Source: Promethearchaeota archaeon (GTDB lineage Archaea > Asgardarchaeota > Lokiarchaeia > Sigyniarchaeales > SOKP01). From it: a DNA stretch of 64,000 nt. Within the stretch, counting starts at the first letter, position 1; each line of letters opens with the position of its first letter. Position numbers and translations under genes: made by a program. Positions 687 to 12,478 of this stretch are shown piece after piece. The stretch lies in contig JBHLOY010000002.1 in the NCBI GenBank assembly GCA_048939995.1, forward strand, positions 224,001 through 288,000. The letters are read 5' to 3'. The notes under the pieces were generated by a model. That model saw only the letters and a list, made by a program, of their open reading frames with translations. It ran no database searches and was not told where the DNA came from.

Positions 687-802
687 TGTTAAATCTTTCC
701 AAGAGTAGATAACAAAATTACAAATAATGATATAGGTGAGAATACTATTTAAACCAATCCGTAAAATGCCTTGCTAAAGCGGGTTTTAGTATACTTATAA
801 TA

Positions 803-843
803 TTCGAACTTTGAGCGAAGTTTAGAAGCTATTTCTAAAAATA
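803..843 (+). promoter_or_regulatory. 41-bp conserved motif, copy 1 (dyad TTCGAA-N13-TTAGAA + TCTAAAAATA)
   Basis: TTCGAACTTTGAGCGAAGTTTAGAAGCTATTTCTAAAAATA aligns without gaps to copies at 5875-5915(-), 7482-7522 and 11588-11628. Confidence 0.75.
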
Positions 844-1047: not shown

Positions 1048-2049
1048 TTGATTAATTTTGATCTTATTGAACGTTTTTTTTCGTCTATTGCAATAGTAGT
1101 AATAATTTTTTGTTTTATATTTTATTTTTCTCAAGGGCGTAAGAAAGAGGTTCTACATGAAAAAATTTTGATGTATAGTTTTGCAAGTTTTTGGCTCAGT
1201 ATTTCTTTAGCAAGAATATTTTATTATTTTTCTGACATTTTTTTAGAGGGAACTTACTCAGGTGATTTAAGCACACTTATTGAATCATATGATCTCTTAA
1301 ATTATATTATTCTTTACTTTTATCTATATTCTCATATATATATTTTAATAAGTATTATAGCATTAAGTGTTATGTTTATATGGTTTTCAATAAAGTCAAA
1401 AAAAGAATTTCAGCTAGTTTCCTCAGTAGTAGCCATTGGATTTACAATATTTTTAATAGGATGGGTTTTTGAAACGACGGCATTAAAGCAATTAAACCTT
1501 ATACCTCCAGCATTACCATCTATTTTTATAATAGTAGGAACCATAATTGCAACGATACCTCTAATTGTGGATATTGAGTTTTTTTCAAGCAAATTAATTA
1601 ATTGGTTAGTTTTAATTTCAATTGTTTTGATTTTACTTTTTTTTAGTTTAACCATTTTTACGAATCTCCCATTAGTACTTTTAAGTCAGATTATAATCTT
1701 AATTTCAACCTCTGTTTTAATTATGGTGATCATTTTTGTGGCATTTTACATAATCAAGAGAATTAAAGTATCAGAAGTTCAGGAAATAGTTCCAAAGGAG
1801 GAACTTAAAGATTTTATAAAGACTTTTATGAAGCCTGCTACCATTACAATCGAGGAAATTCAATTATATAAAGAGAAAGGATTATGTTTGGTGTGTAAGA
1901 GTAAAGTCACACGATTAAATTATGTCTGTCCCAAATGCTATGCATTATATTGTTTAAAATGCTCAAGAGCATTAACTAATTTAGAAAATAGTTGTTGGGT
2001 CTGTGAAACCCCCTTTGATGAATCTAAACCTATGAAAAAGTCTAAATAG
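1048..2049 (+). CDS. Multi-pass (~7 TM) membrane protein with C-terminal C4C4 RING-like zinc finger; candidate E3 ligase
   Basis: About seven hydrophobic segments, then CLVC-x10-CPKC-x4-CLKC-x10-CWVC; lies upstream of the JAMM/E1/E2 genes; TTG start. Confidence 0.6.
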   Translation: MINFDLIERFFSSIAIVVIIFCFIFYFSQGRKKEVLHEKILMYSFASFWLSISLARIFYYFSDIFLEGTYSGDLSTLIESYDLLNYIILYFYLYSHIYILISIIALSVMFIWFSIKSKKEFQLVSSVVAIGFTIFLIGWVFETTALKQLNLIPPALPSIFIIVGTIIATIPLIVDIEFFSSKLINWLVLISIVLILLFFSLTIFTNLPLVLLSQIIILISTSVLIMVIIFVAFYIIKRIKVSEVQEIVPKEELKDFIKTFMKPATITIEEIQLYKEKGLCLVCKSKVTRLNYVCPKCYALYCLKCSRALTNLENSCWVCETPFDESKPMKKSK

Positions 2050-2549: not shown

Positions 2550-3566
2550 ATGTTAAAGCCTCCTCAAATCTTATTTACCGGAGAAAATGGTGTTGGTAAA
2601 ACAACTATCTTGAATTTATTTCCAGAAGATATTATTTTAGAATTAGACGATAACTTTAATGAAATTTTTCAAAAGCAAGTTAATATTACTGGATTCAAAG
2701 GTATAGAACATTGTATTTTAAGAGAAATTGATTTAAGAGAATTAGTAGACAATTTTTTTTCTTTTCAAAAACTACTACAGGCTCTTGATATCATTCTCAT
2801 TGTAACTGATTCAACTGAACGAAATATTAAATATACTTATAATTTATTTTCTGAATTGAAATATAAATTACCTAAAATTGATTTTTATATAATTGCTAAT
2901 TTTCAAGACAGAAAGTCAATTTCAATGCCCATAGAAAAAATTGAATCTATATTAAAAGAGAAGGTTTTTGGATATTCGGCCATCCAAGAGGATTCAAAAG
3001 ATTCTATGACTGAAATTATTAAAGAGATTTTAGAAATTTCAATTATTAAAAAACAAGGAAAAAAGCTTTCATTTGATAAAATTGATTACAATACAATTTG
3101 GTCAGACATCGAAGAAGCAAGATTGTTGGAAAAGAAAGGAGACCATTATGCGGCATCAAAAAAATTCTCAATTGCTGGATCTAAATTTAAAATACTAAAT
3201 TCAAATGAGGAAAAAGAAGAATTTAAAGCGTTATACAATTTATGTAAGGCTTGGGAGTGTATAGAATTAGCTGAAGAATATGAGGATGTTTCGAAGTTTG
3301 CTGAAGCTGTGAAATTTTTTGATCAAGCAATTGAATCTCTATATGATGAGAAATTAAAATTTTTAGTATCCGCTAATTTAGCACATTGTGAAGCTTTAAA
3401 ATTAGGAATGGAGTCAGATACATCAGATCAACTACATATTAAAGAAAAATTATATTTAGAAATAATCGATTTAATTAACAAAGCAGTTAATTTATATAAA
3501 AGAGGAGGTTTTGAAAAAGAAGCGGAATTTGCTTTAACTACCTTGAATAAATTAAAGAGCCTTTAA
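2550..3566 (+). CDS. Divergent Ras/Arf-superfamily small GTPase domain fused to a TPR-like helical domain
   Basis: G1 GENGVGKT, hydrophobic strand IILIVTD, G4-like ANFQD, G5-like YSA; no DxxG; C-terminal alanine-rich helical repeats. Confidence 0.75.
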   Translation: MLKPPQILFTGENGVGKTTILNLFPEDIILELDDNFNEIFQKQVNITGFKGIEHCILREIDLRELVDNFFSFQKLLQALDIILIVTDSTERNIKYTYNLFSELKYKLPKIDFYIIANFQDRKSISMPIEKIESILKEKVFGYSAIQEDSKDSMTEIIKEILEISIIKKQGKKLSFDKIDYNTIWSDIEEARLLEKKGDHYAASKKFSIAGSKFKILNSNEEKEEFKALYNLCKAWECIELAEEYEDVSKFAEAVKFFDQAIESLYDEKLKFLVSANLAHCEALKLGMESDTSDQLHIKEKLYLEIIDLINKAVNLYKRGGFEKEAEFALTTLNKLKSL

Positions 3567-3619: not shown

Positions 3620-4114
3620 TTGACGTTATTCGAAAAAGATTTTCTATTTCCAGTATACATCGATAAAAATACTTTAAATCATATTGATGAATTATGCAAA
3701 AATTCTGATAGAGAACTTTTTGGCTATTTAATTGGTTTAATTTTAAAATGGAAAAAGAATAAATATATTATTATAAAAGAACAGATTTATATTAAAAATA
3801 CAGTTAGAAGTAATAAATTTAACACATCCCAAATTGAAGGAACTGCTGGAAAATACGAACAGGAATTTCAAAAGTTGAAACATAGTATGAGGAACGAGAA
3901 TTTACGAGTTGTAGGATGGTGGCATTCCCATATCAATTTAGGGTGCTTCTTATCCTTAACTGATATTCATACACAAGAATATTTTTTTCCTGAACCTTAC
4001 CAAGTTGCATTAGTAGTTGATCCTATTCGAGAGGAATACAAATTTTTTACATTAGATGCAGGCTCAAAAAAGAAATACAAAACGCTAAGTTATGCTATTA
4101 TATCTTCAACTTAA
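3620..4114 (+). CDS. JAB1/MPN+ (JAMM) metalloisopeptidase, Rpn11-like
   Basis: RELFGYLIG (catalytic Glu) and VVGWWHSHINLGCFLSLTD = HxH-x7-S-x2-D JAMM motif; ALVVDP. Confidence 0.92.
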   Translation: MTLFEKDFLFPVYIDKNTLNHIDELCKNSDRELFGYLIGLILKWKKNKYIIIKEQIYIKNTVRSNKFNTSQIEGTAGKYEQEFQKLKHSMRNENLRVVGWWHSHINLGCFLSLTDIHTQEYFFPEPYQVALVVDPIREEYKFFTLDAGSKKKYKTLSYAIISST

Positions 4115-4131
4115 CAATTTAGTTTATATCT

Positions 4132-5013
4132 ATGCGTAAGAAAGAAAATCAAGGAATTAAAGTGATTGGAACGGATTCCATAGATTCAGATAGATTCGAT
4201 CGCCAAAAGAGAATTATTGGTTGGGATCAAACTATTATTTCTAATGCGACAATTATGGTAATTGGTGCTGGAGCTACTGGAAATGAAGTTATAAAAAATT
4301 TAGCTTTAGTCGGAGTTGGAAAGATATTTTTAATTGATTATGATTTCATTGAAACTTCAAATTTAAGTCGTTGTGTGTTGTTTAACCCTAAAGTAGCAAA
4401 GGATAAAGAATACAAAGCAGATGTTATTAAAGATGTGTGTAGAGACTTAAATCCTGATGTCGAAGTTGTTTCAATTAAAAAAGACTTAAATTCAATAGAT
4501 AAAACTCTTTATAGCAAGTGTGATGTAATATGTTCTTGCTTAGATAATCTTGAAGCACGGATAGAAGCTAACAATTATGCATATTATAATCGAATTGCTT
4601 TTGTTGATTCTGGGATCGACGAATTTTTTGGTTCAGTTCAAGCAGTATATTCAGAAGTTGAAAATTCAGCTTGTTTGCAATGCGGTATATCAGAAAAGGA
4701 TTTGGATTTAATGTGGAAAAAATTTTCTTGCACTGGAGAGGAATTAAGGTCTGAAGAAGGTGAAACCACAAATAAAATAGCAACAATCATTACGACTACT
4801 TCAATAATAAGCGGTATTCAATCTCAGCAGGTTTTAAAATTTTTACTTGGAATTAAATATTATAAGGAAGATAAAAAATGGAATCCTTATATTGGAGCAC
4901 CATTGGTTGGTAAGCAATTAATTTATAATGGCCTAACAAACAGTTTCAACATTATTGATAAAATAAAAGATCCAAATTGTTGGACTTGCTCATACAAAAA
5001 ATCTAAGATTTAA
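4132..5013 (+). CDS. Ubiquitin-activating E1-like enzyme (ThiF/UBA family)
   Basis: DRFDRQ, GAGATG, D-x-D-x3-TSNLSR, LDNLEAR, Zn pairs CLQC and CWTC, candidate catalytic Cys in FSCTGE. Confidence 0.92.
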   Translation: MRKKENQGIKVIGTDSIDSDRFDRQKRIIGWDQTIISNATIMVIGAGATGNEVIKNLALVGVGKIFLIDYDFIETSNLSRCVLFNPKVAKDKEYKADVIKDVCRDLNPDVEVVSIKKDLNSIDKTLYSKCDVICSCLDNLEARIEANNYAYYNRIAFVDSGIDEFFGSVQAVYSEVENSACLQCGISEKDLDLMWKKFSCTGEELRSEEGETTNKIATIITTTSIISGIQSQQVLKFLLGIKYYKEDKKWNPYIGAPLVGKQLIYNGLTNSFNIIDKIKDPNCWTCSYKKSKI

Positions 5014-5030: not shown

Positions 5031-5558
5031 ATGCCAGAATTACCCTTTGAGATATGGAAAGAAAGAGTAAATAATGAGATAAAGATCCTAAGAAATATTA
5101 GCCTCATTGAAAATAAATCTATAGCATGGCATGATAATAGTGTAGAATTATGGATTAATTTAAGTGCCTTTGGATTCGTTAAAAGAGAAATTGAAGGAGT
5201 TATCAATGTAAAACCTCAGATGAATCACCGAATTCTCATTAAAATAAATAGATCCTTTCCATATCCAGGAGGGATTGATTTTGCTTGGTATTCAGAAATA
5301 TTTCACCCAAATATCCATCCCATTGAATTAAAAGGATTGAAAACTATAGGCACAGGTTATATTTGTTTAAATATTTTAAGACAATGGACAAAATTATCAG
5401 ATTTGGAAACTACAGTTAAATCCCTTGAAAAATTAGTAGAGAATCCCAATCCAGAGGATCCTCTTCAATATGATATTTGTATTGAAGCTGCTGAATTCTT
5501 TAAAAGAAATTCAATTCAAGAACTTAAAAAGATTTATAAAAAAGAAAATTATATTTAA
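5031..5558 (+). CDS. Ubiquitin-conjugating E2-like enzyme (UBC fold)
   Basis: FPYP...IFHPNI...GYICLNILRQW (HPN motif, catalytic Cys, Trp), NPNPEDPL; AGGAGG RBS. Confidence 0.93.
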   Translation: MPELPFEIWKERVNNEIKILRNISLIENKSIAWHDNSVELWINLSAFGFVKREIEGVINVKPQMNHRILIKINRSFPYPGGIDFAWYSEIFHPNIHPIELKGLKTIGTGYICLNILRQWTKLSDLETTVKSLEKLVENPNPEDPLQYDICIEAAEFFKRNSIQELKKIYKKENYI

Positions 5559-5824
5559 GAATTAAAAAACAAACCTCCAATAACTTTTGTCCATAACATC
5601 AAAATATCATATTCTTTTAACCCAAATTTATGAATTGCCTCCCTAATTGATATTGCATTCGGTAATTCCTTTTCCTTATACACTAAAGCATAAGAACGTT
5701 GTTCTGAACTTATAAAACCCATATGTTTAACAACAATTTCTATAATACGCTCTATTATATGATGTTCCTTTACATCTAACTTTATTCTTTTGCCTGTTCT
5801 GGTATCTTCTATTGATAATTTCAT
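5555..5824 (-). CDS. Ubiquitin-like modifier precursor (GG at residues 83-84 followed by LFFNS)
   Basis: Aligns by eye with ubiquitin: TGKRIKLDV/TGKTITLEV, EQR/QQR, YKEKEL/FAGKQL, LMLWTKVIGG/LHLVLRLRGG; stop overlaps the E2 stop (convergent). Confidence 0.88.
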   Translation of the reverse strand: MKLSIEDTRTGKRIKLDVKEHHIIERIIEIVVKHMGFISSEQRSYALVYKEKELPNAISIREAIHKFGLKEYDILMLWTKVIGGLFFNS

Positions 5825-5874
5825 TTTTTTTTTTTAATTTTTCTTTTAAAGACAAATAAATTTATTCAACTAAT

Positions 5875-5915
5875 CATTTTTAGATTTGAGTTCGAAACTT
5901 TTCACAAAGTTCGAA
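5875..5915 (-). promoter_or_regulatory. 41-bp conserved motif, copy 2, ~50 bp upstream of the ubiquitin start
   Basis: Minus strand reads TTCGAACTTTGTGAAAAGTTTCGAACTCAAATCTAAAAATG (both TTCGAA half-sites perfect). Confidence 0.78.
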
Positions 5916-5922
5916 TTAGAGA

Positions 5923-7218
5923 TTATTCTTGTTCTTTCAACTTTTTATTAATTTCATCCAATATTTTATATTTTGGAAAATCTTTTAAAATTGAGGTTAA
6001 AATGGTTTTTTCTCTTTTTATTCTGTTATAATCCTCTAATTTTAGGTTAATTATATTTTGGAAAGCTAAACCCTTAAACTTGTCTACTAAATCATCTGAA
6101 ATTGTCTCTTTTTGATATTTCCCGAATAAGAAATTGATGTAATCTGGTACAAATTTCTTTAGAGGTGATTTTATATTTCTATCAAAGAGTTTATCAGAAA
6201 TATCATTTAAAATATTGTCTAATAAATCTACGGTTTGTGAATTTCTTTCTTCTTTAGAAATATCAGGTTGTAATCTTTTGAGATAACTAAACTTTAGAAT
6301 GTTCTCATCTATAATTAAATGCAACATTTTATCAATTTTGTCATCCTCTCGAAAATAATATACCACTTCATCATTAAGTCTTAAATTGAAAAATTTTGTA
6401 TCATATAAATCCTCTTCAGTAATCTTTTGCGTACAAAAAGTAAGTGTAGCTAGTTTAATATTATATTTAAGAGAAAAATTTTCTTGTGAAATATATTCTG
6501 GATATCGACTTGGATGATTTATAGAAAGAAATAATAATATTTTATAAAAATCTTCTTTTGATGGGAGTATATTCTCAATGAAGCTATAATTCAAATGATT
6601 GATTAAATCTAGAAATAAAATTTCAATTTGGCTATCTTCAACATTCTGCTCTTTAAGAAACCTTCTGACGTTTTCTTTGATACTTTCTATTTTATCTATT
6701 TCTTCTTCTAAAACTGATTGATAATCTAATTGGTATCTTTTCAGCATTTTATTATATCGTTCCTCACCTATTCTAGTGATTCTGTATTCCATGTTTTCAC
6801 TATCAACAAAACCTTTTTTCATTAAAAGATTTAAATATTTTGATAGAGAATTATGATTGAGAGAAAGAGGTTTTTCAATAAAATCTGACCACTTTAAATA
6901 GTCGTTATTAAATAACATCCACAAGATGATATGAGCATAATTTCTCTTGTTTAAAATGATCTCTGGAGGATATCTTAATTTTCTCTCAAATGAATCTTTA
7001 AATTTTAAATCTATATATCTTTTTTTACCTTCAGCAGTAGCTAGATAAACTCCTTTACTCTTTTTCTCAACATATCCGTTTGAAATTAATAATTTCATGT
7101 ATTTAGACAATGTAGCTAAGCTGATTTCTAACGGCTCATCTAAAAAGACAGACCAATTACATTCCTCATTATTATTAAGCATCCAGAGGATTATATATTC
7201 AAAATCTTTCTTCTCCAT
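5923..7218 (-). CDS. Tandem winged-helix (ArsR/MarR-like) DNA-binding protein with long helical C-terminus; probable regulator
   Basis: Two internal repeats IILWML-x-NN...W...PL...LSKY...L...G[YF]V...Y...T..G..RY. Confidence 0.8.
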   Translation of the reverse strand: MEKKDFEYIILWMLNNNEECNWSVFLDEPLEISLATLSKYMKLLISNGYVEKKSKGVYLATAEGKKRYIDLKFKDSFERKLRYPPEIILNKRNYAHIILWMLFNNDYLKWSDFIEKPLSLNHNSLSKYLNLLMKKGFVDSENMEYRITRIGEERYNKMLKRYQLDYQSVLEEEIDKIESIKENVRRFLKEQNVEDSQIEILFLDLINHLNYSFIENILPSKEDFYKILLFLSINHPSRYPEYISQENFSLKYNIKLATLTFCTQKITEEDLYDTKFFNLRLNDEVVYYFREDDKIDKMLHLIIDENILKFSYLKRLQPDISKEERNSQTVDLLDNILNDISDKLFDRNIKSPLKKFVPDYINFLFGKYQKETISDDLVDKFKGLAFQNIINLKLEDYNRIKREKTILTSILKDFPKYKILDEINKKLKEQE

Positions 7219-7427
7219 GCCTGATGGGTTAATTAAATCTTCTGGAGGATAATTGATTTTTTTAGCACAGATTTTATTTATACACCTATTATTATTTCTT
7301 TATTTTAATTTTCAATTAAATTTTGAGTAATCTCGCTTATATATAAGATATAACAAATATGTTTAAAAAATTTCATTTAAAAATAAAAATCCTCATATTC
7401 AATATTTTTTATTTAAATAACTCAAAC

Positions 7428-7452
7428 TTCGGATTATATGCAAAATTCCGAA
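7428..7452. promoter_or_regulatory. Dyad TTCGGA-N13-TCCGAA, variant of the motif, between the wHTH gene and 7596
   Basis: Perfect 6-bp inverted repeat with the same 13-bp spacer as the four 41-bp copies. Confidence 0.55.
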
Positions 7453-7481
7453 CTGTTTCTTGGAATAATAAGTGGAAGATA

Positions 7482-7522
7482 TTCTAAGTTCGCTAAAGGT
7501 TTCGAACTTAAATCTAAAAATA
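7482..7522 (+). promoter_or_regulatory. 41-bp conserved motif, copy 3
   Basis: TTCTAAGTTCGCTAAAGGTTTCGAACTTAAATCTAAAAATA. Confidence 0.7.
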
Positions 7523-7595
7523 AAGATTAAGCATAATAACCAATTGACACAAATTTGCCAAAAAAGAAAAAGAAAAAAAAAAAAGATGAAAAAAA

Positions 7596-8366
7596 ATGAA
7601 TAGAAATAACCTATCTAAATTGATTCTCTTAACCTTTCTGATGTTCGCTATTTTCAGTTTTATACCAGTAGTTGCAGCAAGCTCAGGTAATGCAACCAAA
7701 AGACCATTAGATGATTGGTTAGATCCGAATTACGCTGCTTTCCCGTGGGGCGAAGAAAATTGGGCTTTTTATGACTTTTGGAGCCCTTATTCTGGTTTAG
7801 TGACGAAGATGGGGTTACCTTGGCCTTTGGCTGGCTTCGGCCCATTTGTTAACGACATGATATACGAAAATAGTTTAGTAATAGGAGATACTATAATTGA
7901 TGGTAATATTAAAGAACGAGCATTAAACGATGGAACTGCTTTAATAACCCTGCAATTAAATGTGAAAAACGCTCCATGTTCAGTTTATGATTACTTCGAT
8001 TTTATTCTTTACTGTCTTGGGGCTGCTCCTTACCCTCAAGCCGTATTGGGAGATGGAATTGATGGGTATATCGATTATACCGTGTTAGTTAAATTTTATA
8101 TCCCTGAACCTGGAGCAGAGCTACCAAATGTATTTGATATGTGGTATTATTATGTCTCGATTAATATTCACGGTATTGGTTATGGAACATTAACAGAACG
8201 TGCAGTTGAGCTCGGTTTTGCCGAAACTGCTGGTGCACCAGGAATGGTAGAACTTCATCACATAGCCCTTTTTAAGCCTGATTTCAAAGAAACTCATCCT
8301 AAATATGATCCATTTTATGGTGATTTATGGCCAGTTGACTCCGTTGAAGTTTATGAATTGAGTTAG
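7596..8366 (+). CDS. Secreted hypothetical protein; paralog of 11681..12478
   Basis: Signal-peptide-like N-terminus; shared blocks RPLDDW, NVKNAP, HG-x-G-x-GT, K-x-DFK-x2-HP-x-Y, LW-x-VD. Confidence 0.85.
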   Translation: MNRNNLSKLILLTFLMFAIFSFIPVVAASSGNATKRPLDDWLDPNYAAFPWGEENWAFYDFWSPYSGLVTKMGLPWPLAGFGPFVNDMIYENSLVIGDTIIDGNIKERALNDGTALITLQLNVKNAPCSVYDYFDFILYCLGAAPYPQAVLGDGIDGYIDYTVLVKFYIPEPGAELPNVFDMWYYYVSINIHGIGYGTLTERAVELGFAETAGAPGMVELHHIALFKPDFKETHPKYDPFYGDLWPVDSVEVYELS

Positions 8367-8420
8367 AAGCAGATTAATGGAGAGAAATACCAAGTGAGGG
8401 TTGAAATTTTTAAATAATAA

Positions 8421-8508
8421 TATAGAACAAGGAGGAAAAAGATTAGAATAATGGCTTCTCGAATGACCACATCCAAACCACTATTCCTCCATTCTTTTTT
8501 TTTTTTTT
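8421..8508 (+). terminator. Stem (GGAGGAA/TTCCTCC) with long loop followed by T14; terminator or structured 3' UTR
   Basis: 8431-8437 complements 8484-8490; T-run 8495-8508; same layout at 12509-12594. Confidence 0.6.
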
Positions 8509-8643
8509 AAAATATTCTTTTTAATTTTTGCTTCTTTTTAGATTCTGATAAAATTATATCTTAAATCTGATTATCATAGACAGAAAAGTTTAAAAATAGA
8601 ATCAACTAATCTTCAAGTTATACATAAATGTGAATTCTATTAA

Positions 8644-10356
8644 ATGATTAAAATGATAGAAAAAGCTTCTTCTAAAAAAAGATTTCCTAATATCAAAGAA
8701 TTCAAGAAAATAATCATAGTTGGAGGGTCAATAATAAGCTTAGCGATAGTTGGGATTATAAGTGGAATTATTATTATGGGAGATATCCCGCAAGGAGGTA
8801 TTCTTAAAGTAGGTATAACTAAACCTATTGGAGAAATTGACCCTCTTATGTATAGCTTTTCTTCAGAAGAAATAGTAATTAATCATGTTACCGAGACGTT
8901 ATTTGATAATATTTATATAGGTGGTAAATCTCAAACTCTTCCTCATCTAGCATTAGATGGAAATTGGAGTTCGGACTACCTAAATTTCACATGCACACTT
9001 AGAAAGAATGTCATGTTCCATGACGGAACGCCATTTAATGCTGCAGCCGTTAAATGGAACTTCGATAGAATTCCTCAAATTATCGATCCATCACTTCCAG
9101 ATTGGTATTGGTGGGCTTACCTATTTCTTTTACCAGATGGGCGCTGGATTGTAAATAAAACTCTAGTCTTAGATTCCCATATTGTAAAATTTGTTTTAAA
9201 TGATGTTTTTGTACCTTTTCGAGAATTATTAACTCATAGTACTACAAGTATTTTATCACCATCATCAACCCCTGCGGATAAACCCCTAAATATACACATT
9301 GATAATTTAGTTGGAACCGGTCCTTTTATATATGATGGTTATGAACCTAATGTCAATATGTCATTATCTCCTAATCAGAATTACTGGGGAGCAAAACCTA
9401 AAATTGATGAGGTAATTTTAAAGTTTTATTCTCCAACTAATCGTACTAATCGTATTAATATTTTATGGAATGCGCTTTTAGCAGGAGAAATTCATATAGT
9501 AGACCGAGATTTTATTAAGTTTTTAATAATGTACTATCCAGACCGATCTATCGAACTCCTTAAAGGAGTTGCAGGAATTACAGTTCAACAAAAGCCTACT
9601 ATAAGCAATTATTATGTTTTTTTTTATCCTAAACTTGTTAATAGTACAATGAGAAAGGCAATATCTTATGCAATTAACTATTCTAATATACTTGAAATAG
9701 TTCCTAACTCTATAACAGCCAGATCCCCAATTCCAGAAGGTATCTCTTACTCTAACATTACTGGTATTGACATTCCTTATTATAACATTTCAAAGGCGAG
9801 ACAGATGTTAATTGACGAAGGTTGGCCTGGAACAGCGGGTTTAACGGCAAATGACAATATTACAGCAGGAAACGAATGGGAACAATTAGTAACTAATGGA
9901 TCCCCTCTTGCAATATATAATTTATCTTATTATACAGAGAATCCATACAATGAATTACCACCAATTCCTTTTCCAGAAAATCTTAAACAAATTGGAGTCA
10001 ATGTATCATGTCGATCAATTTGGAGTGGTGCTCCGTCTCAACTTGAAACATTAATGTGGATGTATGACTATAACGATCCACACACTGGTATTATGATGGA
10101 TTATCATTCAAAATGGACTTTATGGACCGACTTTAATGTTAGTGTATTAGATGAATTGATAGAAGAAGGAATTAAGGAGATAAACCCTGTTTTAAGAGAA
10201 GCGATATACTATAATATTCAAAAACTTATAATCGAGGAAATTTGTCCTGTTATATTTACTCTCTCTCCACGAAATTTAGATATATATGCATCAAATTTAA
10301 TGGACTGGCAAATTTATCCATTCAAAATAGTATTTAAAACAGTTCACTTCGTCTAA
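8644..10356 (+). CDS. ABC transporter substrate-binding protein, family 5 (DppA/OppA-like), membrane anchored
   Basis: N-terminal TM; ETLF, LRKNVMFHDGTPFNAAAVKWNFDR, VGTGPF, RKAISYAINY. Confidence 0.92.
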   Translation: MIKMIEKASSKKRFPNIKEFKKIIIVGGSIISLAIVGIISGIIIMGDIPQGGILKVGITKPIGEIDPLMYSFSSEEIVINHVTETLFDNIYIGGKSQTLPHLALDGNWSSDYLNFTCTLRKNVMFHDGTPFNAAAVKWNFDRIPQIIDPSLPDWYWWAYLFLLPDGRWIVNKTLVLDSHIVKFVLNDVFVPFRELLTHSTTSILSPSSTPADKPLNIHIDNLVGTGPFIYDGYEPNVNMSLSPNQNYWGAKPKIDEVILKFYSPTNRTNRINILWNALLAGEIHIVDRDFIKFLIMYYPDRSIELLKGVAGITVQQKPTISNYYVFFYPKLVNSTMRKAISYAINYSNILEIVPNSITARSPIPEGISYSNITGIDIPYYNISKARQMLIDEGWPGTAGLTANDNITAGNEWEQLVTNGSPLAIYNLSYYTENPYNELPPIPFPENLKQIGVNVSCRSIWSGAPSQLETLMWMYDYNDPHTGIMMDYHSKWTLWTDFNVSVLDELIEEGIKEINPVLREAIYYNIQKLIIEEICPVIFTLSPRNLDIYASNLMDWQIYPFKIVFKTVHFV

Positions 10357-10417: not shown

Positions 10418-11467
10418 TTATTCAATATAGGGTATACTTGTCAGATCCATGTCAAAATTTCCCTCTAGGATTTCAAACCTGATATTGTAATAATACTTAA
10501 CGATGTTAAGTAGTAAATCATCTGATGTAAAATAAAAAATACCCTCATATGTAGTATGTGCAATACGATTGAAATCAAAACCCTTTACAAGCGGACAGAT
10601 CAGACCAGGAACCTGCAATACACAAGTAGGAAATCCACTTTTATCCATGAATTCCCCTCCGTAGGGAATTTCAAGCATTGCACCAATATCAGCGCTACTA
10701 TCCTCATAAAGAACAAATATCTCTCCATTATTAACTTTGAATATCCCTGTTATGTTAGCACCAATATCTCTATATTGAAGAACTTCAATATCTATATTAC
10801 CCTCTCTAATGTTTATGTCCCAACTACTATTTTGAGCATATTGTACATCATTTGACTTGAAAATTAAATTTCCATCATTTATATTTCCAATTATGTTTCC
10901 TTGAATTGAACAGTGCTCAAAATTATACAAAATATTTCCATTGGAGACGTTTGTTAATAAATCTCTAAAGGAAACGCCATAAGGAATAGTTATTTCAAAG
11001 TTTCCTTTAGTTAGATTGGTAATAATATCAAATACAATATCTTTTCTAATATTTACAACGATGCTTATTTCTTTCTTTAACCAATATAGTGGATTAAACC
11101 AATCATCTGATATTATCTCCATTCTAAAATCTACTGGAAAACTTGAATTGTTCCAAGAAATGTTTAAATAATCATTGTACGATTGACCTGCTAAATTTTC
11201 CCCAATCAAGGCAATATTTACGTCTATTAACACGTAATAATCAACTGGGGGATCAATATATCTTATTTCTACATTTCCCTCATCAGCGTTAATGTACAAC
11301 TTTTCAATAGATGCTGGTGAGCTTGGTTCATAAGTAAAAGAACAAGATTCGTAAATATGGTCATACAATGAAGACCTGAATGATAATAATTGGATTGGAA
11401 TAATTATTATAAGGGAACCCCATAAAATAACCAATATAGCTACTCCAATAACAATTTTTTTCGCCAT
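10418..11467 (-). CDS. Membrane-anchored extracellular beta-rich protein (DUF4097/adhesin-like)
   Basis: N-terminal TM; repeated GN[IFL]-x-[hydrophobic] strands; paralog of 1..686. Confidence 0.75.
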   Translation of the reverse strand: MAKKIVIGVAILVILWGSLIIIIPIQLLSFRSSLYDHIYESCSFTYEPSSPASIEKLYINADEGNVEIRYIDPPVDYYVLIDVNIALIGENLAGQSYNDYLNISWNNSSFPVDFRMEIISDDWFNPLYWLKKEISIVVNIRKDIVFDIITNLTKGNFEITIPYGVSFRDLLTNVSNGNILYNFEHCSIQGNIIGNINDGNLIFKSNDVQYAQNSSWDINIREGNIDIEVLQYRDIGANITGIFKVNNGEIFVLYEDSSADIGAMLEIPYGGEFMDKSGFPTCVLQVPGLICPLVKGFDFNRIAHTTYEGIFYFTSDDLLLNIVKYYYNIRFEILEGNFDMDLTSIPYIE

Positions 11468-11587
11468 TTTTAAATCTATTAATTACAAACAATTAATTCT
11501 ACAATCAATTAGATAAGGTAATTATCTATTTAAATTAATCCCTCAACACTTTTTTTTTTTGACCCTAAAACAGTACAAATTTTAAAA

Positions 11588-11628
11588 TTCGAACTTTGCG
11601 CGAAGTTTCAAAGTCAAATCTAAAAATA
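11588..11628 (+). promoter_or_regulatory. 41-bp conserved motif, copy 4, ~50 bp upstream of 11681
   Basis: TTCGAACTTTGCGCGAAGTTTCAAAGTCAAATCTAAAAATA. Confidence 0.78.
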
Positions 11629-11680: not shown

Positions 11681-12478
11681 ATGAACAAAACATATAGAGG
11701 ACTTTTATCAATAACATGTTTAGCAATTTTTGGGATTTTAATCATGGGCGCTATACCAGCAGTACAGGGAGCCTCTTCGATTCAAAGGCCACTTGATGAT
11801 TGGTTTTATGATGTCTTTGGTTTCGATATGAATTATCATGTAGGAGGTTGGGTTGATGGATATCAGGTAAGACCTCAAGGCATAGATTATGATACGACTA
11901 CTGATGAGTGGATCTATCAACCGATTTGGGAATGTACATATGATGGCTATATCCTTGATAGAGATATGCATGATGGCCGACATATGATTACAGTTAATAT
12001 TAACGTCAAAAATGCTCCAGTTATCGTTGCTCCACCTTTTGGGAGTGGAGGATACTATTGGGTCTTCCAAGGTACTATGAATTATAATTATGAATATAAA
12101 TTCATAGTAGATCTAGCAGAATGGGCTTGGTGGTTGATTTTTTTGGAATTTGATGATGATGGCTTTGATGAAAATGGAAATATCCTGTTACCTAGATGGG
12201 ATATACCTATGGTTTATGGCTCAATCTTCGGATTTGAATTCATTTCAGTGCATTTTCATGGCGAAGGAGAAGGAACAATAGTCAATTACTGGGATGAATC
12301 CTGGGTGGGAAATGGAGATCGTATTTGGGAACCAGATGAATCAGCAAAATTGAGTACCAATATGCTTGGACTTGTAAAGGATGATTTTAAACTAGATCAT
12401 CCCAATTATTGGCCCTCTGAATATTCTAGTATACCTTGGAGTGTATTATGGGCAGTTGACTTTGTAAAATTACATTAA
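11681..12478 (+). CDS. Secreted acidic/aromatic-rich hypothetical protein; paralog of 7596..8366
   Basis: Signal peptide ending AVQG/A; shared motif blocks with 7596..8366. Confidence 0.85.
   Translation: MNKTYRGLLSITCLAIFGILIMGAIPAVQGASSIQRPLDDWFYDVFGFDMNYHVGGWVDGYQVRPQGIDYDTTTDEWIYQPIWECTYDGYILDRDMHDGRHMITVNINVKNAPVIVAPPFGSGGYYWVFQGTMNYNYEYKFIVDLAEWAWWLIFLEFDDDGFDENGNILLPRWDIPMVYGSIFGFEFISVHFHGEGEGTIVNYWDESWVGNGDRIWEPDESAKLSTNMLGLVKDDFKLDHPNYWPSEYSSIPWSVLWAVDFVKLH

Follow-up and report, generated by a model that had tools for sequence, protein, structure and literature searches.

A seven-helix membrane protein with a RING-like finger as a putative ubiquitin ligase in a Lokiarchaeia-type ubiquitin gene cluster

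The stretch of DNA analysed here (the window, 64,000 nucleotides: positions 224,001 to 288,000 of contig JBHLOY010000002.1, assembly GCA_048939995.1, from a Promethearchaeota archaeon) carries the genes of a ubiquitin-like cascade, headed by a gene, called TM-RING below, for a polytopic membrane protein with a C-terminal RING-like zinc finger (Table 1). TM-RING is probably a membrane-embedded RING-type E3 (ubiquitin ligase) serving this adjacent cascade, a reading that draws, among other things, on the modelled fold of the finger and on its predicted contacts with the E2 ubiquitin-conjugating enzyme of the same cluster. The start codon assigned to the gene is in a position consistent with the N-termini of homologues.

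The finger follows the pattern C-x2-C-x10-C-x2-C-x4-C-x2-C-x10-C-x2-C (C280, C283, C294, C297, C302, C305, C316 and C319), and the remaining 293 residues of the protein contain a single cysteine, C22. Cys is found at each of the eight ligand positions in no fewer than 139 of the 141 aligned relatives, so that the pattern is not a product of chance: position 297 is Cys throughout the alignment, and position 302 is Cys in 140 sequences and His in one. Several non-ligand residues are near-invariant across the same 141 sequences, namely V282 (137), K284 (139), L309 (129), E313 (135), N314 (140) and W317 (141). RING domains obey the ligand consensus C-x2-C-x(9-39)-C-x(1-3)-[CH]-x(2-4)-C-x2-C-x(4-48)-C-x2-C, which the ligand spacing of this finger fits.

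Folded alone with a 141-row alignment, the last 79 residues of the protein gave a model with a predicted local distance difference test score (pLDDT) of 88.5, rising to about 94 in the core, and a beta-beta-alpha arrangement made of two short strands and a helix after the sixth cysteine. The best ten rows of a Foldseek search with this model hold the fingers of TRIM37, RING1B/BMI1 and HRD1 (best E 0.013, probability 1.00). A VIA-align search against 48,161 chains gave Nse1 (Z 5.0, root-mean-square deviation (rmsd) 2.7 Å over 52 aligned residues), the RING of cellulose synthase (CesA, 4.9) and RNF213 (4.6), and further HRD1 (4.4 for 6a3z and 3.7 for 6f98), TRIM37 (4.3) and RNF4 (4.2). Among the best 50 rows of this search, 33 are titled RING, U-box or E2-E3 complex, and PHD, FYVE, C1, LIM or B-box appear in no title. 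The best sequence matches in the PDB are also RING domains, those of RBBP6 (E 0.018), BRE1A (0.084) and TRIM37 (0.12). A profile comparison of the family with two RING-H2 proteins of the same genome placed the ligands in register, with probabilities of 9.6% and 11.9% that, coming from single-sequence templates, are too weak to use. A cross-brace pairing of the cysteine ligands is inferred from the modelled fold. The preliminary description of this gene had recognized a C4C4 finger with a spacing close to that of RING domains and had named two independent zinc ribbons, PHD and LIM as folds that would speak against it. The cysteine pattern is exactly as described there, the RING-like character is borne out by the structural neighbours of the model with the Pfam RING match below threshold, and the neighbours listed by Foldseek and VIA-align are almost exclusively RING and U-box domains and not these other folds.

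The assignment of the neighbouring gene as an E2, also made in the preliminary description, is confirmed by its UQ_con match (Table 1) and by the HPN motif and Cys112, both unchanged in 20 of 20 E2 relatives. In addition, a profile of the window E2 and 19 relatives matches 153 E2 sequences in the PDB. The complex of finger and E2 suggested at that stage was modelled in three runs beside three controls, the E2 with a 20-row alignment and the finger with a 140-row alignment. The interface score (ipSAE) was 0.67 in three of three runs, and the best of the three controls reached 0.01; among solved complexes 116 of 157 come up to the mark applied to this score, and among mismatched pairs two of 215, a calibration which is rough here, where own alignments were used. 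The runs share at least 64% of their contacts, and partner pLDDT is at least 75.

The predicted contacts involve, on the E2, helix 1 (residues 2-19) and the loop after W119 (121-124) and, on the finger, residues 281-285 (L281-S285), 304-305 (K304/C305), 308 (A308), 312-313 (L312/E313) and 317-318 (W317/V318). These are the canonical RING-E2 surfaces, with both zinc loops of the finger and its central helix taking part; helix 1 and a later loop of the E2 packed against the loops and helix of the RING is the textbook layout of such complexes. The predicted interface also falls on the best conserved surfaces of the finger, including the near-invariant V282, K284 and W317, and of the E2, where nine of 12 interface residues are invariant in the 20 relatives as against 48 of 175 positions overall.

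A full-length AlphaFold2 model, made on the cluster representative P0001, from which the window protein differs only by V163A, contains seven long helices (6-32, 36-67, 83-116, 119-141, 156-173, 181-204 and 209-247). In a 19-residue hydropathy scan six of the seven pass the threshold, the less hydrophobic helix 2 being the one that misses it, which agrees with the roughly seven hydrophobic segments noted in the preliminary description. The loops on the side of the C-terminus hold 14 lysine and arginine residues against one on the opposite side, and averaged over 43 relatives the counts come to 12.0 inside and 1.6 outside. By the positive-inside rule, the N-terminus is therefore predicted to lie outside, and the C-terminal 85 residues, with the finger, in the cytoplasm on the same side as the E2; an extracellular finger, which had been raised as a possible objection, is thus not what the charges indicate. 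The outer-loop motif EGTY(S/T)GD (residues 67-73) is conserved. The linker between membrane domain and finger is formed by a helix with the motif DFIKTFMKP and a pre-RING helix, IEEIQLYKEK.

The cluster headed by TM-RING is a conserved Lokiarchaeia-type ubiquitin cluster. The 124 close relatives of TM-RING all come from metagenome-assembled genomes of Asgard archaea, and the labels of the relatives are all Promethearchaeota or Lokiarchaeia-type Asgard archaea; the source genome itself measures 3.75 Mb and is 98% complete. At E ≤ 1e-3 a full HMMER scan retrieved 815 clusters, of which 511 remain at E ≤ 1e-10. Taking one genome per species, 77 distinct loci were sorted by coverage and identity, and those with a full-length match of at least 44% identity were treated as orthologous (28 loci, some cut by contig ends). 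Within 10 kb of these 28 genes lie the small TM gene in 27 cases, the P-loop/TPR gene in 23, ubiquitin in 22, JAB in 15, and E1 and E2 in 14 each; at least one ubiquitin-system gene is present in 23. Among 25 loci that match in the RING part only, eight have a ubiquitin-system neighbour, and in six of them (L058, L062, L065, L067, L070 and L081) a membrane protein of about 350 residues adjoins a Ub-E2-E1-JAB set. Comparison of TM-RING (class I) with this second class by hhalign gave E 1.5e-52, carried by the linker and the RING; the alignment of the TM part is of low confidence, and a common ancestry of the two membrane domains is not supported.

In a phylum sample of 301 genomes a match was found in 58. 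Strong matches are limited to the taxonomic family of the window (48 of 68 genomes), with up to at least six matches per genome, which indicates a lineage-specific and much expanded family. Stand-alone relatives of the finger amount to nine short proteins, most of them apparently C-terminal fragments. In the source genome, a RING-only remnant (L002; G000:C11:488376-491747, 1501-1875) retains linker and finger, with the first cysteine replaced by phenylalanine, and has no TM domain; its frame lacks a start codon before the finger and lies directly behind another gene, and it is probably a decayed paralogue, as judged from its sequence. A third match in the same genome (L003), a single-pass protein with two zinc ribbons, was rejected as a family member.

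Several observations weigh against a ligase of this kind. The Pfam model zf-C3HC4_3 matches the window protein with E 0.001 and 19.2 bits, below its cut-off of 27. In a 43-member alignment of the family, 15 members reach E ≤ 0.01 for this RING model (best 4.8e-4) and 21 for C1_2, another cross-brace finger, all below threshold; Prok-RING_1 and the double zinc ribbon reach the same level in one member each. The RING sequence matches in the PDB are all sub-significant, and the structural scores are low (Z at most 5.0, Foldseek E at least 0.013), middling Z values being common with this tool. Low scores are to be expected of a domain of some 50 residues, and the case for a RING fold rests on the uniformity of the match list and not on the height of the scores. 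The cross-brace pairing is deduced from the fold match. The position after the last cysteine is E, N or D in the 141-relative alignment, whereas many active RINGs carry an Arg or Lys 'linchpin' there. RING-E2 pairs are abundant among solved structures, so that the success of the complex model may reflect likeness to these and not this particular pair, and the full-length model has a mean pLDDT of 73.6, its TM part being moderately confident. In the gene neighbourhoods, E1 and E2 are each found within 10 kb in only 14 of the 28 orthologous loci, and paralogues of about 400 residues (27-36% identity) have a ubiquitin-system neighbour in four of 24 loci and none nearby in the other 20. A profile comparison of the family with two RING-H2 proteins of the same genome placed the ligands in register, with probabilities of 9.6% and 11.9% that, coming from single-sequence templates, are too weak to use.

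Part of this evidence would suit a finger that is a non-catalytic module, C1/PHD-like or ubiquitin-binding, through which the protein would be tethered to partners or lipids, or would act as a substrate or regulator of the cascade. The more frequent C1_2 matches, the missing basic residue after the last cysteine, the modest structural Z values and the location of most ~400-residue paralogues away from ubiquitin genes all point that way. However, the C1_2 match is confined to residues 274-305, PHD, C1, FYVE and LIM domains are absent from the best 50 VIA rows and from the Foldseek matches listed, the predicted E2 interface coincides with the most conserved residues of both proteins, and the gene is linked to E2 and ubiquitin in orthologous loci. 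A non-catalytic finger is therefore regarded as unlikely, and as the main rival to a membrane-embedded ligase.

The membrane domain also occurs with a different output. Three proteins of 553-567 residues match positions 1-261 of the TM-RING profile (E 1.4e-32 to 7.6e-24), and all three continue into C-terminal HisKA and HATPase_c domains that score above the Pfam cut-offs. Direct comparison of the window protein with one of these fusions by BLASTP gave 27% identity over residues 4-267 (E 4e-17). By sequence comparison, the TM domain of TM-RING and the membrane input domain of histidine kinases from related Lokiarchaeia are thus homologous, a relationship described here as new. Both kinds of protein have the juxtamembrane motif DF..F.(K/R)P (DFIKTFMKP in the window protein, DFLAMFTRP in a kinase), followed by either RING or kinase, and this motif, in the alignment, marks the domain-swap point. 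An insertion of about 70 residues is found in the kinase forms and in the ~400-residue RING forms. In a quick tree of the TM domain, from which nine of 46 rows had been dropped beforehand because the motif cut failed or fewer than 200 residues were left, the three kinase fusions form one clade (support 100) beside a ~400-residue RING form (support 92). As long branches meet at the kinase clade, no direction of exchange is drawn.

No confident structural relative of the TM domain emerged from the general searches. VIA-align of the whole model ranked adhesion-GPCR and rhodopsin-like generic seven-TM bundles best, with Z at most 10, below the trusted level for helical bundles; whole-model Foldseek gave no match at E ≤ 0.001. 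In the ESM Atlas the best score for residues 1-250 was 0.84, and a HisKA_7TM lead reached 0.83, below the trust level of 0.9. The Pfam TM-sensor families HisKA_7TM and 7TMR-DISM gave no match to the window protein at E ≤ 0.1.

The sharing of the TM domain with histidine kinases also lends itself to a reading in which TM-RING is chiefly a signalling receptor, with the RING-like output acting in another pathway (for example with a second E2 of the genome) and the position in the operon reflecting shared regulation only. The existence of a second E1-E2-JAB set in the genome, and of E1 and E2 farther than 10 kb away in half of the orthologous loci, would fit this arrangement. Yet a separate membrane zinc-finger protein is encoded next to the second cascade, ubiquitin is found within 10 kb in 22 of the 28 orthologous loci, and the modelled complex with the adjacent E2 stands up to its controls, so that a receptor detached from the local cascade is held to be improbable.

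The second cascade (L083; G000:C23:184000-193300, 5323-9172 on the minus strand) comprises an E1 of 410 residues (ThiF E 3.6e-57), an E2 of 175 residues (UQ_con E 2.8e-25) and a JAB protein of 276 residues. Next to it is encoded a polytopic membrane protein of 376 residues; its linker is rich in S, T and R, and its C-terminal finger, C-x2-C-x16-C-x2-C-x4-H-x13-C-x2-C, has no Pfam match and aligns with the RING family by hhalign with a probability of 40% (E 2.9e-4). The genome contains four more zf-RING_2 matches (L084-L087, on contigs C11, C38 and C6), three of them above the cut-off; they include a 94-residue protein with two zinc ribbons and a RING, and a 191-residue RING protein with a helical tail.

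The finger, too, is a module of its own. The RING module and the helix that precedes it (..ITEEEV..KEKKICLVCK..) end TPR proteins of 506-737 residues in four of five fused forms and an LRR protein in the fifth. The occurrence of the RING module behind TPR and LRR domains is, on these alignments, new here. Two further loci were noted: in L077 the reading frame of the RING module also holds, by eye, the apparent end of an acyl-CoA synthetase, and in L080 the module stands behind a soluble domain without an assigned family. E3 families are built by joining a constant finger to varied binding or membrane domains, and sensors by letting a membrane domain feed a kinase. The combination of a modular finger with a membrane domain shared with kinases is more suggestive of a ligase with a sensing or selecting membrane half than of an Hrd1-like channel.

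An analogy of layout with Hrd1-type membrane E3s, drawn in the preliminary description without a claim of homology, holds to the extent that a TM bundle followed by a cytosolic RING-like finger is supported; no match to the Hrd1 membrane part was among those listed. True homology with the Hrd1/gp78 ligases of endoplasmic-reticulum-associated degradation (ERAD), with the TM bundle as a retrotranslocation channel, would draw on this layout (a polytopic TM domain, then a C-terminal RING) and on the HRD1 RING among the structural neighbours of the finger, a place it shares with many RINGs. The finger of Hrd1, however, is of the RING-H2 type, whose ligands 4 and 5 are His, where TM-RING has Cys; the homology found for the TM domain is with the input domain of kinases; and no Hrd1 TM chain is present among the matches listed from the PDB profile search, whole-model Foldseek and the best 50 VIA rows. 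No Derlin-like TM homology is listed in the PDB profile search, whole-model Foldseek or whole-model VIA either. A true Hrd1 homologue with a channel function is given a very low probability, although the matches listed do not amount to an exclusion.

For a membrane-embedded ligase working with the local cascade, the following mechanism may be envisaged. The finger would grip the E2 of the operon through its first zinc loop (L281-S285), the central helix (K304-E313) and W317, and would activate the E2~Ub conjugate so that ubiquitin passes to lysines on proteins in or near the membrane, or on TM-RING itself. The JAB peptidase would mature the pro-ubiquitin (GG-LFFNS) and reverse the tags. Given its homology with the input domain of histidine kinases, the TM domain is taken to be more than an anchor; it would probably sense a ligand or the state of the membrane and signal to the RING through the linker helices, or alternatively may select membrane substrates. 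The 69-residue two-helix protein, a candidate subunit, and the P-loop/TPR protein are candidate partners. It seems possible, though this is put forward tentatively, that TM-RING is a receptor-type prokaryotic ubiquitin ligase, in which a seven-helix sensor, interchangeable with that of kinases, switches a cytoplasmic RING via the shared juxtamembrane helix.

Table 1. Coordinates of the genes, domains and elements discussed (positions in the window unless a locus is named)
Feature	Position	Strand	Remarks
TM-RING gene	1048..2049	+	TTG start, 333 residues; seven TM helices, linker, C4C4 RING-like finger
Seven-helix membrane domain, residues 1-247	1048..1788	+	predicted N-terminus out, C-terminus in
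Juxtamembrane linker, residues 248-277	1789..1878	+	helices 252-259 and 268-277 in the model
RING-like finger, residues 278-326	1879..2025	+	eight Cys codons within nucleotides 1885-2004
Two-helix membrane protein, 69 residues	2075..2284	+	beside 27 of 28 orthologues
P-loop NTPase (GENGVGKT) fused to TPR-like region	2550..3566	+	weak AAA, small-GTPase and TPR matches only
JAB/MPN (Rpn11-like) peptidase	3620..4114	+	PF01398, E 4.8e-11, above cut-off
E1-like ThiF-family activating enzyme	4132..5013	+	PF00899, E 5.8e-45
E2 ubiquitin-conjugating enzyme	5031..5558	+	PF00179 (UQ_con), E 2.5e-10
Pro-ubiquitin-like protein	5555..5824	-	C-terminal end ..VIGG-LFFNS; weak ubiquitin/NEDD8 matches
Tandem winged-helix protein, candidate regulator	5923..7218	-	HTH_45 E 4.7e-12, HTH_34 E 4.7e-07
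Operator-like element	800-843	+	205 nucleotides before TM-RING start, between the divergent upstream gene and TM-RING
Operator-like element	5876-5916	-	52 nucleotides before the ubiquitin-like gene
Operator-like elements	7479-7522, 11587-11627		before paralogous exported-protein genes 7596-8366 and 11681-12478
Histidine kinases with TM-RING-like membrane domain	L088:443-2128, L089:566-2269, L090:578-2239		HisKA and HATPase_c
RING module fusions	L091-L095		with TPR or LRR proteins

The window is AT-rich (GC content 26-35%). Among the neighbouring genes of Table 1, the 69-residue protein has no family match in Pfam or NCBIfam scans, and NCBIfam also yielded no meaningful family for TM-RING, the E2 or the ubiquitin-like protein. 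The best ubiquitin/NEDD8 match of the latter has E 0.0023, and TUG-UBL1 matches it with E 0.001. Most of the E2 relatives (19 aligned; L007, L008, L013 and others) end in an acidic-hydrophobic tail with the consensus ..EDDDIIIIDD, which is absent from the window E2 and from L006 and L036.

An element of about 41 nucleotides, with a palindromic core TTCGAAC..GTTT(C/A)GAA and an A/T-rich tail, is present in four copies in the window; shuffles gave no matches expected by chance in the pattern searches. It is common to the upstream regions of TM-RING and the ubiquitin-like gene and is a candidate for their regulation, the link to TM-RING being weaker than that to the other genes on account of the distance between the copy and the start codon. 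Paralogous membrane-anchored proteins without a family match are encoded at 3-686 and 10418-11467, both on the minus strand, each divergently paired with one copy of the element; the first of them, upstream of TM-RING, is kept near 24 of the 28 TM-RING orthologues.

RING-type proteins have been described in two other archaeal ubiquitin operons. The Ub/E1/E2/Rpn11 operon of Caldiarchaeum subterraneum encodes srfp (small RING finger protein), reported as small, soluble and akin to RING-H2 (PMC5654768), and a Helarchaeia operon encodes a soluble RING E3 (bioRxiv 10.1101/2023.07.25.550441); both cascades are reported to function in vitro. TM-RING resembles these, going by the available descriptions, in the location of a RING-type finger beside Ub, E1, E2 and JAB in an archaeon and in a pro-ubiquitin extended past GG. 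The same descriptions set it apart from them as a seven-helix membrane protein of 333 residues whose finger is all-Cys and whose TM domain is of the sensor type. In the literature library searched, no paper was found on a RING of this membrane-embedded form from the ubiquitin operon of an Asgard archaeon. RING E3s as such are thus already known from archaeal ubiquitin operons, and the polytopic, sensor-type membrane form is what is new. Burroughs, Iyer and Aravind reportedly dealt with prokaryotic RING fingers in 2011, and related forms may be described there.

Membrane-bound ligases are best known from eukaryotes, where Hrd1, gp78, TRC8 and RNF145 are polytopic RING ligases. These, like the peroxisomal Pex2/10/12 ligase (7t92; Z 3.7 for the alignment of chain 7t92_C with the finger), carry a cytosolic RING C-terminal to a membrane domain of several helices, as does TM-RING. 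They differ from it in that no TM similarity was among the matches listed, and in the C4C4 finger and archaeal host of TM-RING; this host is not known to have endomembranes. CNOT4 (NOT4) has the same all-Cys ligand set (1ur6_B, Z 3.7, rmsd 2.2 Å over 49 residues), but no common architecture outside the finger, and many RINGs score as well or better, so that no special kinship is indicated. The link between ubiquitin and membranes underlies ERAD, endocytic/ESCRT sorting and receptor down-regulation in eukaryotes. With E1, E2, Ub and JAB all encoded alongside, the conserved polytopic RING protein of this Lokiarchaeia operon is a concrete system in which to ask how that link first arose.

Compared with sensor histidine kinases of the seven-TM type, TM-RING has a homologous TM domain and juxtamembrane motif and differs in its output, a RING in place of a kinase. 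The common membrane domain means that the ligase activity may be gated by a signal, and allows a direct comparison of the TM-kinase with the TM-RING forms. In function, the closest analogy may be with TRC8 and RNF145, in which a sterol-sensing membrane domain is coupled to a RING. Should TM-RING prove to be a receptor-type ligase, it would represent signal-controlled ubiquitin tagging at an archaeal membrane, a forerunner of sensor ligases of the TRC8/RNF145 type and a counterpart of two-component signalling in which ubiquitin replaces phosphate.

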